DNA of 64,000 nt from Eledone cirrhosa. Lineage: Eukaryota. Every line of letters starts with the position of its first letter. Position 1 is the stretch's first letter. Location of the stretch: positions 20,832,001 to 20,896,000 of the forward strand of contig OZ024743.1 of NCBI GenBank assembly GCA_964016885.1, read 5' to 3'. A program made the translations under genes and the position numbers. Below the pieces are notes generated by a model. It did not search any database and was not told where the DNA came from. It saw nothing but the letters and a program-made list of their open reading frames with translations. Positions 316-60,278 of this stretch are shown one piece after another.

Positions 316-399
316 TTGCATATCTGAAGAGGTGTCGATTAAGAGTCGGTACCTGATCAAACCCAAGCTGATCGATATTGAAACAGTTGTAATATGCAA
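316..399 (+). ncRNA. Type I hammerhead ribozyme, probably from a Penelope-like pLTR
   Basis: Stem I ttgcatat/atatgcaa; core CTGAAGA (324-330); stem II ggtgtcgatt/gatcgatatt; GAAAC-agtt-GTA; followed by AATAAA. Confidence 0.75.
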
Positions 400-430
400 T
401 AAAGTTTCATAAGCTGCAAATCAGACTTAT

Positions 431-522
431 TCTCTCTCTCTATCTCTCTCTCTCTCTCTCTCTCTCTCTCTCTCTCTCTCTCTCTCTCTATCATCATCAT
501 CATCATCATCATCATCATCATC
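431..522. repeat. (TC)n microsatellite followed by an (ATC)n LINE tail
   Basis: Seen directly. Confidence 0.95.
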
Positions 523-910
523 AACGTTTAACGTCCGTGTTCCACGCTTGCATGGGTTTGGACGGGGGTTTTCCCACTTGAGGCAAGAGTGATTATCTTG
601 CTTGCATAGGACTATCTGGCGGGTTTTCTACAGCTGGATGCCCTTCCTAACACCAACCACATTTACAGTGTGGGGCTGGGAGGTTTTTACCATGTTGCCT
701 ACATGGCCACATTATAGCATGGACTGTCTGGCGGGTTTTCTACAGCTGGATGCCCTTCCTAACACCAACCACATTTACAGTGTGGGTCTGGGAGGTTTTT
801 ACCGTGTTGCCTACACGGCCACATTACAGCGTGGACTGTGTGTTTTTTTGTTGTGACACCTACACGATCTCATTTGTTTCGGCCTGGATGTTGTGGCACC
901 AACATAACTT
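490..910 (-). mobile_element. RTE family A 3'UTR fragment with an internal ~112 bp tandem duplication
   Basis: Near-identical to the 3' end of the RTE at 33617-37305; (GAT)n tail on the element strand. Confidence 0.9.
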
Positions 911-2135
911 TTATATATATATATATATATTTATTTATTTATTGGTGATGATATATATATGTGTGTATATAAGATGACAGCTATTTAAGGAAGTGCAGAG
1001 CAGTCTCAGGGGGGGGGGGGGGCTTGTCAAAGAGGCAGACCCATGAAGACATGGGGTGAAGTAGTGGAAACTAGCAGAGCCTATGACAAAAGACCATGGA
1101 GATTGACAACATGCTGTACTGATAAAAACTTGCCTGCCATAAAATGTGACTCCATCTGATTCATCCATGTGCCGATCTTGCCACTATCATACTTTAGTGG
1201 CTATTTCCACTTCCTCTGTACATCCCCATTCAATTCATAGCTTCCTCTCCATTATCATCCTGTAGTAGCTACACTCACTATTAATTTGCTACACCACCCA
1301 TACGCCTCGATTATCATCATCCCTCTTAAATCCTAGAACCCACACTCTCCCCAGAATCACTCCTACTCCTCTAAAATTCTGACATACCAGTATTAATCCC
1401 TTTATAGTTCGTACTACCATGATATCAGAGGTCACCCCCACCCCACCTGCCTACTAAACACCTTGTCATATTCCCCCATCTCAATGCATTACACCTATTA
1501 CATACTTATCATCCTTCTTGTCAATCACTCTCATAGGGTAGAGAGGGTTCTTCAGTTGGTGCTGGTGCCAGGAAAAATTCCTCAGTACTCCCTGTAAGGT
1601 AGATGGTGATAGAAAGGGCAGTTTGCTGTAGAAACCGTGTCAAATAATGGTTGAGAGGGTTTCTCTAGTGTTGGTAATCTACATGATAAATGCACCAAAT
1701 AAACCCTGCATTGCCCTGTCCTTCTTTCTTGGTACACACCACTTGCAGGTTTCTCCTTGTTCACATATTCAGTATAGAAATCAACTCTATATATTTTTTA
1801 ATGGTATATATAACAACATAGTGATTGTTAGTTAAGAGATTAATTCTGAGTAGTTGAAGTACTGATGCCATGATAAGATACACCAAATACACTCTGAAAA
1901 GTGATTGGTATTAGAAAGATGATCAAGTTATAGGAATCACATTAAATATGAAACAAAAGCTAGACATAGTTTCAATGGTGTCTAGTCTCACAACATGATG
2001 TAAAGCTGATGTAAAATGATAATACATAATAAATTTCAATCACAAGACACTGGTTAACTCCAGGCCTGCCTAAAGTGCCAGATAGTAGGGCTGAACACAA
2101 AATCCTTATGAAGTAGAATCCTTTACCACATAGCT

Positions 2136-56342: not shown

Positions 56343-56960
56343 ATATATTATATATATGTATATATAATATATATACTATATATATATATTATATATATTA
56401 TATATATTATATATATTATATACATATATATATTATATATATATATATATATATATATATATATTATATATATTATATAAATATATATATATATATATTA
56501 TATATATTATATAAATATATATATATATATATTATATATATTATATAAATATATATATGTATATATTATATATATATATATTATATAAATATATATATAT
56601 TATATATATATATATATATATATTATATATGTATATATATATTATATATATATATATATTATATATATATATTATATAAATATATATTATATATATATTT
56701 ATATATATATTATATATATATATATTTATTATATATATATATATATATATATATTATATAATTATATATATATATATATATTATATATATATATATTATA
56801 TATATATATTATATATATATATATTATATATATATATATTATATATATATATTATATAAATATATATTATATAAATATATATTATATATATATATATCTT
56901 ATATATATATATTATATATATATATTATATATATATATATGTATTATATATCTTATATAT
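56343..56960. repeat. (TA)n tract
   Basis: Seen directly. Confidence 0.95.
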
Positions 56961-56961
56961 A

Positions 56962-57133
56962 CATTATTCCGGGTTGAGTCGGAGGTAACGACAGTAAGTA
57001 AGGTACTCAATACATTGCAGAGTATAAAAGTTTTAATATAAGATGAGATTCTTTAGAAATCATCAGGAATCTCTGATTCCTGATGATTTCTGAAGAATGA
57101 AACAGTTCTAGTCCTGTAGAATCTCATCTATAT
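56962..57133 (-). mobile_element. Fold-back pLTR fragment, same family as 4070-4278
   Basis: Inverted arms around 57071-57074; tail on the left; flanked by TA. Confidence 0.7.
57075..57123 (+). ncRNA. Canonical minimal type I hammerhead
   Basis: gattc CTGATGA tttc-tgaa-gaat GAAACAG ttctagtc CTGTA gaatc. Confidence 0.78.
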
Positions 57134-57435
57134 ATATTATATATATATATATTATATATATATATAATATATATAATATATATATATATAATATATATAT
57201 ATGTATAATATATATATATATATATATATAATATATATATATATATATATATATTATATATATATATATATATATATATTATATATATATATATATATAT
57301 ATATAATATATATATATATATATATTATATATATATATTATATATATATATATATATATATATAAGATATGTATTATATATATATATATATTTATATATA
57401 TATATGTTTATATATATATATATATATATATGAAA

Positions 57436-60278
57436 TATATGAAATATAAGAATCAAAGAACTGTTCAAAACATTATTGTGCTTACAGCTGTTTCCTCCAA
57501 ACCGAGGTTTGGATTCTTCGGAGCAATTTATTAATGCATGGACAGTTATATGACCTCCTTTTCAGCCGAGAGACATACCAATACATATTCAAACATTGAT
57601 ACATATTCAAACATTGTGGGTCAACATTCATTACAAAATTTAGAGTGGCAGTACACACTTCGAGATTACATTTATATTAATAGGTACAATCAAAAATCAA
57701 AGATATAGGTTAAAGTACAACATGAAGATAAGTGGTTATATAGTGCAAATGTTATATGTGTGGCACGCATGTGCGTCTTGTTTATATAGTGTGGCAGAGA
57801 GATATGTGTGGTAGAGGCACTTAGGTAGGTAAATAAGAGTGTTAGGTTGGTAGATCTGGTGGCAAAGTCTTTATATGATTGATGTAGTCTGTGTGTGGAG
57901 AAATATTATAAACATTAAAGATAGTGCAAGCATTAAAAGTGTTATAAGTATTGGAGATGCACAACGCAGGGATGTCACGTAATTCATGTACTTCGGCATT
58001 TTCATGGTCAAGGGAGTGTATATTTCGATTATATGCCTTTCACATAATCCACGACAATCCAGTTAGAGATCGTAGTCTGGTGTTCCTTAGTTCGATACAG
58101 GAGGTTGTTACGTTTCGAGAGACGCCATTGAATACCGGAAGTGTGTGTGTGGCTAAGGGGAGTTAATGCATGCGGGGAGGTAACTCTGGGGTTTCTATAT
58201 CTAGCCATTAAAATGTGTCCCAATATGGACCCTAAATTCTATGGTGAGGTGCACCTTCCAAGAGAGACTTTTAAAGCATAAAGTGTACTAACTATAGAGT
58301 AGTTTAACTAAATTATGCTGAAGGAGATCATATTATTATTAAGGTGGATTAACCCATCTTAAGGTGCTACAAATGGAAATTATAGATGATGAGCGAGGAT
58401 TCTAAATTAATGATCTCTGTGGTTGTAGTCTGCTCATATGACCAGGCGCGGTGATTGCAGGATTGCTTCAGGACCCAATGATCTCTGGTAAGATCTGGGT
58501 CATCGCTTGCTACATTGGATGTCGAAAGATAATCGTCCCCAGGCAGGCCAAAGGTCAATCCCCAGTCCTCGCGACCCCTCTCTGACCGTCAGATCATCCA
58601 TATACGTACAACCCGCACGGCAGTTGCATTGCATTCACTCACTGCGCTCAGCAGCCCGGTCCTACTGGTCAACAGCGCTACTCGATTAAATCATTTTACA
58701 TCTGTCTAAGGAAGGTGTTTCCTCTGCCCAACACCATCCAACCGATCGATTCATGCTCAAATTACCCTTAGAGCGGTGTAGTGCCGTCCAGGCGGGTGGA
58801 TGTTGTCACACCTGCCGTAGAGGTATAAATGGGTATTTTCCCTGCGAAGGGTTCCAATGGAACCCTTCGCAGGGAAAATACCCATTTATACCTCTACGGC
58901 AGGTGTGACAACATCCACCCGCCTGGACGGCACTACACCGCTCTAAGGGTAATTTGAGCATGAATCGATCGGTTGGATGGTGTTGGGCAGAGGAAACACC
59001 TTCCTTAGACAGATGTAAAATGATTTAATCGAGTAGCGCTGTTGACCAGTAGGACCGGGCTGCTGAGCGCAGTGAGTGAATGCAATGCAACTGCCGTGCG
59101 GGTTGTACGTATATGGATGATCTGACGGTCAGAGAGGGGTCGCGAGGACTGGGGATTGACCTTTGGCCTGCCTGGGGACGATTATCTTTCGACATCCAAT
59201 GTAGCAAGCGATGACCCAGATCTTACCAGAGATCATTGGGTCCTGAAGCAATCCTGCAATCACCGCGCCTGGTCATATGAGCAGACTACAACCACAGAGA
59301 TCATTAATTTAGAATCCTCGCTCATCATCTATAATTTCCATTTGTAGCACCTTAAGATGGGTTAATCCACCTTAATAATAATATGATCTCCTTCAGCATA
59401 ATTTAGTTAAACTACTCTATAGTTAGTACACTTTATGCTTTAAAAGTCTCTCTTGGAAGGTGCACCTCACCATAGAATTTAGGGTCCATATTGGGACACA
59501 TTTTAATGGCTAGATATAGAAACCCCAGAGTTACCTCCCCGCATGCATTAACTCCCCTTAGCCACACACACACTTCCGGTATTCAATGGCGTCTCTCGAA
59601 ACGTAACAACCTCCTGTATCGAACTAAGGAACACCAGACTACGATCTCTAACTGGATTGTCGTGGATTATGTGAAAGGCATATAATCGAAATATACACTC
59701 CCTTGACCATGAAAATGCCGAAGTACATGAATTACGTGACATCCCTGCGTTGTGCATCTCCAATACTTATAACACTTTTAATGCTTGCACTATCTTTAAT
59801 GTTTATAATATTTCTCCACACACAGACTACATCAATCATATAAAGACTTTGCCACCAGATCTACCAACCTAACACTCTTATTTACCTACCTAAGTGCCTC
59901 TACCACACATATCTCTCTGCCACACTATATAAACAAGACGCACATGCGTGCCACACATATAACATTTGCACTATATAACCACTTATCTTCATGTTGTACT
60001 TTAACCTATATCTTTGATTTTTGATTGTACCTATTAATATAAATGTAATCTCGAAGTGTGTACTGCCACTCTAAATTTTGTAATGAATGTTGACCCACAA
60101 TGTTTGAATATGTATCAATGTTTGAATATGTATTGGTATGTCTCTCGGCTGAAAAGGAGGTCATATAACTGTCCATGCATTAATAAATTGCTCCGAAGAA
60201 TCCAAACCTCGGTTTGGAGGAAACAGCTGTAAGCACAATAATGTTTTGAACAGTTCTTTGATTCTTATATTTCATATA
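57436..60278. repeat. Long palindrome: two 1421 bp arms with a 1 nt spacer at 58857
   Basis: Centre ggttcca-a-tggaacc; four ORF pairs give identical translations at mirrored coordinates (sum 117714); the ends match as reverse complements. Confidence 0.97.
60189..60235 (+). ncRNA. Minimal type I hammerhead, U4C variant; mirror copy at 57479-57525 on -
   Basis: tgct CCGAAGA a-tccaaacc-tc-ggtttgga-g GAAAC agct GTA agca. Confidence 0.62.

Follow-up and report, generated by a model that had tools for sequence, protein, structure and literature searches.

The stretch of 64,000 nucleotides (nt) of the Eledone cirrhosa genome studied here (contig OZ024743.1, positions 20,832,001 to 20,896,000; hereafter, the window) raises the question of how at least seven hammerhead ribozymes with little common sequence came to lie in asymmetric fold-back insertions, mostly in (TA)n repeats. 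An earlier note on this DNA had ascribed them to Penelope-like elements (PLEs) with hammerheads in their pseudo-long terminal repeats (pLTRs), and had regarded the ribozymes as unrelated and the system as largely non-coding. The Penelope-like origin is borne out by linked open reading frames (ORFs) and motifs of the Hydra clade. The insertions are probably 5'-truncated copies of several Hydra-clade PLE families with a hammerhead in the terminal repeat, whose reverse transcriptase (RT)–endonuclease, held on two hairpins, would prime two complementary DNAs (cDNAs) at cut (TA)n. The panel of ribozymes is an expected PLE feature, and the twin hairpin and the geometry of end points are the new part. 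How the PLE RT chooses internal starts and how the one-sided tail arises has been addressed by one in vitro study.

The window comes from a genome of 3.0 Gb and is rich in (TA)n and in RTE-type long interspersed nuclear element (LINE) copies. Argonauta hians is the sole named host among the protein hits, in line with a cephalopod source. Families are denoted by the position of the window motif: A (60189), B (46685), C (44962), E (316), F (48625), and G (49301); the further labels are B2 (31679, 31897, and 33408), D (4070), and D2 (57075). According to genome searches, which gave 838–2262 first-look candidates per family with 40 scored (these figures are not copy numbers), every one of the seven motifs belongs to a multi-copy family; 20–60 loci were examined per family. 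Family A is very young, as 40/40 scored copies are 100% identical; 40 scored copies each of B, C, F, G, and D2 are 97–100% identical, while the scored copies of families D and E show ~80–85% identity.

Hammerhead Motifs

The type I hammerhead layout is present at all seven positions where it had been noticed (316, 44962, 46685, 48625, 49301, 57075, and 60189). A strict CUGANGA descriptor has four matches in the window (324, 48633, 57080, and 49367 on the minus strand) versus none in 100 block shuffles, a relaxed-core descriptor has five versus a mean of 0.1, and a descriptor tolerating one bulge or mismatch, in line with the relaxed search proposed earlier, has six (46690 being added) versus a mean of 0.155 and a maximum of three in 200 shuffles. 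The seventh motif, 60189, with U4C and A.G at 10.1–11.1, is missed because its stem I consists of 4 bp plus an internal loop. Under constrained folding, all seven form the three-way junction (−3.8 to −24.2 kcal/mol). This junction is the minimum free energy structure for 49301 only, and for three motifs the folding z-scores are weak, with no advantage over shuffles (44962, +0.25; 48625, +0.28; 57075, +0.83). The Rfam scan of the window yielded no hammerhead at E ≤ 1, the only hits being AT-rich microRNA look-alikes below the gathering score. Self-cleavage of the motifs is predicted.

The consensus core (C3 U4 G5 A6 N7 G8 A9, G12–A15, U16, H17) is complete in D2, E, F, and G. It is altered to U4C in family A (CCGAAGA, 35/35 copies), U4A in family C (CAGAAGA, 44/47), and U3–A8 in family B (TTGATAA, 28/31). 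According to published work on PLE hammerheads, a genome holds numerous type I families of diverse sequence, the motifs standing mostly alone or as pairs on opposite strands 100–700 bp apart, and the U3–A8 variant occurs in PLEs of Schistosoma (Cervera and de la Pena, 2014, PMC4209133). The motifs studied here agree in diversity, pairing, and the U3–A8 variant, but stem III comprises 3–7 bp instead of being absent, hence the term "minimal" used earlier is loose, and G10.1–C11.1 is often replaced by U.U or A.G. The U.U combination is common among published Hydra hammerheads (PMC8557442 supplement), and U4C is a known natural variant with lower activity in vitro (PMC3846280, PMC2377424, and PMC3088659 as a set cover U4C, the pLTR promoter, and rotifer self-priming).

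The same descriptor, applied to 820 kb of fetched loci, yielded 55 distinct hammerhead variants, some ten additional families among them; such motifs saturate the genome. At one locus, two family F hammerheads stand in tandem 255 nt apart (L155:2975 and L155:3230), a natural dimer arrangement that was not seen in L147 or L148.

Coding Partners and the Hydra Clade

Five families (60189, 46685, 44962, 48625, and 49301) are the 3' ends of elements with an RT plus GIY-YIG-type ORF carrying Hydra-clade signatures. In family A, the link comes from a tandem with a period of 4198 nt (locus L016), where an open 832-codon frame begins right after the tail. Fifteen extended regions yielded coding elements for B (L141, L142; period 3.5 kb), C (L144–L146), G (full-length in L151–L153, period 3.6 kb, with a 719-codon frame in L153), and the 3' part of F (L147–L149); the coding copies of B, C, and F seen are frameshifted or partial. 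The ORFs of B, C, F, and G each end 1.0–1.5 kb ahead of the hammerhead of the same family, on the same strand. The coding elements are 3.3–4.2 kb long and their proteins are mutually ~32–51% identical. Since five of the seven families are joined to such ORFs, the ribozymes are not unrelated and the system is not mainly non-coding. The non-coding look of the window copies comes only from the length of the 3' untranslated regions (UTRs), 1.0–1.5 kb; the 49301 copy keeps the last 54 codons.

The Hydra clade of endonuclease-containing PLEs is defined by the RWx and DKT motifs, the CxCx5C linker, CxxC before E, and CxH after N (Craig et al., 2021, PMC8557442). Here, we find a single ORF with an RT containing YRDD and a C-terminal endonuclease region with a VIY..YVG-type motif. 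An RWR/RWK-type motif and DKT are present in A, C, and G (the N-terminus of family B is broken in the aligned copy, and that of F is not securely assigned), whereas the CxCx5C linker, CxxC before E, and CxH after N occur in A, B, C, F, and G; one G copy has C>R in the Cys motif, the C being retained in L151 and L152. The hammerhead near the 3' end and insertion into (TA)n are likewise Hydra features, although copies of family E and old copies of D often adjoin (TC)n or (CA)n instead. Judged by these signatures, the five families are Hydra-clade PLEs, a known kind. The family A protein also contains asparagine-rich insertions (L016 ORF, codons ~505–700); such insertions are reported in rotifer Penelopes.

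Hydra elements with hammerheads and (TA)n targeting have been published, including Hydra-1_Obim of Octopus bimaculoides, whose printed protein, compared by eye, resembles that of family G (PMC8557442). The protein signatures, the hammerhead position with frequent U.U at 10.1–11.1, the (TA)n target, and the inverted truncated copies are all shared with the published clade. The differences are the unit length (3.3–4.2 kb with the long 3' UTRs, compared with generally <3 kb), the tails (70–160 nt, compared with 30–40 bp quoted for PLEs), the fixed U4C, U4A, and U3–A8 cores, and the very young high-copy families.

The earlier suggestion to look for RT/GIY-YIG partners thus succeeded for A, B, C, F, and G, and not for D and E. 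No ORF was found for D in 20 + 5 + 30 loci and six extended D2 regions, nor for E in 20 loci, where a pattern search for long copies gave one known locus only. An endonuclease ORF 1.6 kb upstream of a D copy (L252) was rejected as a partner, being separated from it by simple repeats and an inverted piece. Both families carry the Hydra tail hairpin described below. The non-autonomous reading survives for the 316 (E) and 4070/57075 (D) families alone. An N-terminal ORF in L150 was rejected as that of family F and left uncounted because its leader is unlike the F tail. A different PLE clade is represented just downstream of the window (L020:6290–7302 and 9202–9999); its proteins show a weak GIY-YIG match and no similarity to the Hydra proteins of the window families.

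End Points and the Twin Hairpin

The anatomy noticed earlier, an inverted arm, a forward arm, and a one-sided tail in (TA)n, was confirmed across loci. Each family has two fixed 3' points, counted from the predicted cut: +47/+209 in A, +20/+100 in B, +29/+117 in C (with a minor point at +66), +57/+138 in F, +35/+113 in G, and about +27/+95 in D; the distribution is bimodal in A, B, C, F, and G. Inverted arms start mostly at the inner point and forward arms at the outer point, hence the one-sided tail. In family A, the inner end recurs in independent contigs (loose end at 8663); in contigs from sequencing runs, depth rises toward the 3' end and the tandem junction is seen.

In 21 head-to-head pairs, 19 of them overlapping, the arms differ at 3 of 7039 sites compared with 50.8 expected from between-locus divergence; the paired arms of one insertion share one template. 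Most pairs are unequal, the inverted arm being the longer one in L002, L156, L157, and the window copy of B, and copies consisting of an inner-end arm alone are common. Run-off at the cut site was rejected as the origin of truncations: in 30 family A loci chosen by tail, no forward arm stops there (0/30), the shortest reaching −19.

The tails contain a hairpin of the form RCUC, variable stem-loop, 2-nt U(U/C/A) bulge, GAGY. It was found in 39/41 tails of A, 54/55 of B, 27/28 of C, 9/15 of D, 26/29 of F, and 19/20 of G; in family E, a version with a long loop occurs in 2/5 inverted tails. The upper stem, which lies outside the search pattern, averages 3.3 bp versus 0.63 in shuffles. An initial test on 32 representatives, many of them tail-less, gave six hairpins versus 0.27 expected. 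The hairpin was first seen at inner ends; wherever a full-length leader is available (four families), a second one follows the outer point (4/4), and all eight end points of these families, inner and outer, lie 2–7 nt 5' of a hairpin (chance, 0.006 per point).

The motif is also present in other animals. From a metagenome set of 77 loci with Hydra-type ORFs, 52 match the N-terminus, and 46 leaders were left after length and redundancy filters. The motif occurs in 35/46 leaders and twice in 22 (shuffles, 3.5 with a maximum of nine in 300), compared with 29/476 coding windows; the second hairpin stands ~35–70 nt ahead of the ORF start, and the median spacing of the two is 64 nt. Covariation was assessed in 39 of the 52 elements, 13 with broken, short, or motif-less leaders being dropped, by counting base pairs with anchored scripts because MAFFT failed to bring the hairpins into register. 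The first upper pair of the 64 distinct hairpins counted is C–G in 40 and U–A in 16, and never C–A or U–G (p 2e-14, counts uncorrected for kinship among elements). Of 22 elements with a 3' repeat matching the leader, seven at contig ends were set aside; in the rest, 11/15 repeats stop 0–8 nt before a hairpin. These observations suggest that the twin hairpins likely tell the RT where to start.

In the literature searched, we found no description of a twin hairpin, figures, bioRxiv supplements, Repbase entries, and subscription papers lying outside this view; a word search finds no mention of it in the main text of PMC8557442. In the sequences printed in the supplement of that paper, the motif is visible by eye in Hydra-2_Amil, Hydra-1_Ajap (twice), and Hydra-2_Ajap, is weak in Hydra-1_Amil, and was not seen at the short printed 3' end of Hydra-1_Obim.

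A similar scheme is known for a Poseidon element of Anolis carolinensis, where two internal RT starts define the tail (Frangieh et al., 2024, PMC11167929). In vitro, cutting and extension involve both strands of the target, and the template is mainly uncleaved RNA; a dimer is predicted. That element belongs to another clade; its starts map within the ORF, to an AC-rich stem-loop, and were described as lacking homology to the target, whereas the start points of the Hydra families are UA-rich and upstream of the ORF, each then followed by the conserved bulged hairpin.

Insertions of the Window

The copies found in the window and their signals are as follows (position, strand, feature).

289..432, plus: family E copy, from the Inr-like (initiator-like) +1 of the family to the inner end point before (TC)n
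316-399, plus: family E hammerhead, core at 324, predicted cut after 391
4062..4272, plus: old family D short fold-back, ~80% identity, with an inverted arm and a damaged hammerhead core at 4134
4210-4229, plus: decayed family D tail hairpin within the 4062..4272 fold-back
31679..31878, plus: B2 short fold-back, 3' half of the hammerhead only; tail hairpin 31803-31826
31897..32092, minus: second short fold-back of B2, facing the 31679 copy head to head across (TA)n; hairpin 31951-31974
33408..33612, minus: third B2 short fold-back
44895..45123, plus: family C short fold-back with a hammerhead at 44961-45015 (cleavage predicted after 45008) and a hairpin at 45040-45085
45256..45296, plus: family C fragment of 41 nt, from −11 to the inner end point at +29
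45311..46873, plus: family B insertion; inverted arm 45311-46420 (1.1 kb), forward arm 46417-46793, 80-nt tail
46685-46778, plus: family B hammerhead with the U3–A8 core
46704, 46733, 46799-46822, plus: family B TATA-like signal, Inr-like +1, and hairpin, respectively
48548..48820, plus: truncated family F copy with a hammerhead at 48625-48690 (cleavage predicted after 48682) and a hairpin at 48739-48758
49276..50701, minus: truncated family G copy; last 54 codons of the ORF 50701-50540, 1.2-kb 3' UTR, hammerhead 49377-49300
56960..57126, both strands: D2 short fold-back, intact hammerhead on plus (57075-57123)
57436..60278, both strands: family A inverted arms, two identical 1421-nt arms, 3' UTR only, junction at 58857
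60189..60235, plus: hammerhead of family A with the U4C core at 60193 and a palindromic loop III; cleavage predicted after 60231
60279..60440, plus: family A tail of 162 nt between inner and outer end points; inner hairpin 60282-60315

The fold-backs listed earlier have the anatomy described above, but not all contain a ribozyme: 31679 and 33408, as well as 31897, lack the 5' half of the core, and the core is damaged at 4070. The 316 copy departs from this anatomy: it lacks an inverted arm, and its end abuts (TC)n. The 44961-45015 hammerhead combines the U4A core with U.U at 10.1–11.1. The window copy of G stops at the inner end point; the region beside its truncation point, 50702–51130, contains an internal repeat. 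In the D2 fold-back, the tail-bearing arm lies on the minus strand, with an internal deletion and the hairpin at 57005-57023. The family A arms form an exactly symmetric palindrome of ~2.8 kb (100% identity over 1421 nt, 1-nt spacer) with 11 minority variants common to both arms. Fragments of 40 nt from family C, from −11 to the inner point, recur (45256-45296 and L047) and stop in stem III; they are possibly abortive cDNAs.

Proposed Mechanism and Alternatives

In the proposed scheme, each hairpin would hold one RT, with the UA-rich stretch pairing with the nicked (TA)n strand. Synthesis of the two cDNAs would end at different positions, and microhomology would then link them head to head, leaving an inverted arm, a forward arm, and a tail equal to the hairpin spacing. 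As the first base to be copied is located 5' of the hairpin, the outer hairpin never enters the 3' repeat, and, therefore, long outer-start copies need an RNA with the 3' UTR followed by the outer hairpin, which may be a tandem read-through transcript or a hammerhead-made circle, or, alternatively, priming on a transcribed (UA)n flank. More tentatively, with a chance that we place a little under even, the twin hairpin ~64 nt apart would dock a dimeric telomerase-related RT and set both starts throughout the clade, long copies arising via circles or tandems and short ones by run-off on the leader.

In the scheme preferred here, the short fold-backs come from the leader: priming on the leader of a capped mRNA from the pLTR promoter would run off the 5' end after 130–200 nt. 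A promoter inside the pLTR is known for Penelope.

In D2, retrieved by a tail-only query, 15/39 arms end ≤2 nt from an Inr-like A located 30 nt past TATAAA; eight end on this A, and seven of these are preceded by G where the genome has C (two of the seven are ambiguous), so that the extra G may mark the cap. The Inr and TATA consensus and the cap-G signature are general knowledge. In B2, 13/38 arms end ≤2 nt from TTA+1GTC and 13 stop short; the family E ends concentrate between −113 and −103, around an Inr-like site that lies 29 nt past TATAAA, and those of family C between −48 and −44. The junctions of short B2 and D2 copies vary from copy to copy and, hence, these are separate events and not one amplified unit; B2 as a single amplified unit, similar to miniature inverted-repeat transposable elements (MITEs), was rejected for this reason.

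A number of observations weigh against the scheme as a whole or its parts. In Pfam searches with the five family proteins, neither RT nor GIY-YIG was matched, the Pfam GIY-YIG domain matches just 1/46 aligned homologues, and a PDB sequence search matched no solved structure; for this reason, the domain call is based on motifs and the published clade. Concerning the run-off, 12/38 B2 arms extend beyond +1, a TATA box is lacking at −30 in C and G, the 5' ends of family A do not concentrate at its TATA-like site, and stem I is another conceivable source of the extra G in D2. As to the hairpin, it is missing from three other hammerhead types in the loci (0/9, 0/5, and 0/2), F, D, and E yielded no full-length leader, the motif is lacking in 11/46 leaders of other animals with an antisense control of 10/46, and kinship remains within the covariation counts. 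Finally, identical arms fit snap-back synthesis equally well.

A passenger role for some of the hammerheads (U4C in A, U4A in C), which would then be weak or inert and take no part in transposition, is doubtful, though it deserves attention. Copies run across the cut site, mutations of the hammerhead in the anole element left insertion in vitro unaffected (PMC11167929), U4C reduces activity in vitro, and fold-back copies would bury the motif in long duplexes, as the family C fold illustrates. However, the hammerhead stems are wholly different between families and yet the junction is retained, and a hammerhead is present in 23/39 Hydra 3' regions of other animals, 71–533 nt past the ORF match.

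The snap-back route, in which one cDNA folds and is copied back to the inner point, unequal arms resulting from later central deletion of the unstable palindrome, appears unlikely. The near identity of arms, the perfect 2.8-kb palindrome of family A with its shared minority variants, and the self-priming suggested for rotifer Penelopes conform to it, but most junctions are unequal and in the four insertions named above the inverted arm is the longer one. Moreover, inner-end arms commonly stand alone, and a hairpin at the inner point is required only if the RT starts there.

We find it similarly improbable that the hairpin acts elsewhere, as a DNA site for an endonuclease trimming intermediates or as a promoter or translation signal of the leader, its nearness to the ends being secondary. 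The tail of Drosophila Penelope is required for endonuclease recognition (quoted in PMC11167929), and the second hairpin precedes the ORF start closely; on the other hand, compensatory C–G/U–A changes and the one-sided bulge indicate a single-stranded fold, and the inner hairpin, far from the ATG, keeps an equally tight distance to its end point.

There is little to be said for a mainly non-coding, retrozyme-like system of unrelated ribozyme RNAs spreading as circles with the help of a trans-acting PLE enzyme. In its favor, D and E yielded no ORF in the loci examined, long D2 copies start ~740 nt upstream at a single point following simple repeats, and animal non-LTR (non-long terminal repeat) retrozymes, which are likewise short non-coding hammerhead repeats, descend from pLTRs (Li et al., 2026, bioRxiv 10.64898/2026.07.22.740005). 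Against this, five of the seven families are ends of coding elements and the differing junctions of short copies point to separate events. In addition, retrozymes are defined by head-to-tail tandems, whereas the short copies considered here are dispersed fold-backs with individual junctions, and no head-to-tail arrays of short hammerhead units were found in the window or in D and E loci.

An assembly fold-back or a gene-conversion product as the source of the 57436–60278 palindrome is hardly credible despite its complete identity and 1-nt spacer, as it ends at +47, the point used by inverted arms of many other loci, carries the 162-nt tail, is flanked by (TA)n on either side, and resembles other insertions with identical arms.

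Two cDNAs primed at two hairpins thus stay the preferred reading, and this reading is directly testable owing to the conserved hairpin at a fixed distance from both ends, the young intact families, and the simple (TA)n target. PLE RTs are the sister group of telomerase, and, therefore, the way in which they recognize RNA is relevant to how templates are used in that lineage. For annotation, the result would mean that PLE activity leaves thousands of hairpins resembling MITEs in such genomes as by-products.

Other Features of the Window

RTE-type LINE copies, encoding an AP endonuclease, an RT, and a PHD-like finger and ending in (ATC)n tails, lie at 28532–31525, 34001–37241, 39311–42432, 51721–54503, and 55085–55876. 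A host-gene exon at 11367–11549 matches the ANF_receptor ligand-binding region (E 5e-13), and, hence, the elements are probably in or near a receptor gene. At 61700–64000, broken frames, helicase-like by eye, precede a frame of 308 codons that weakly matches ubiquitin hydrolase (E 3.6e-4), together with tandem repeats of 18–21 nt; this region is possibly a Helitron-like element.

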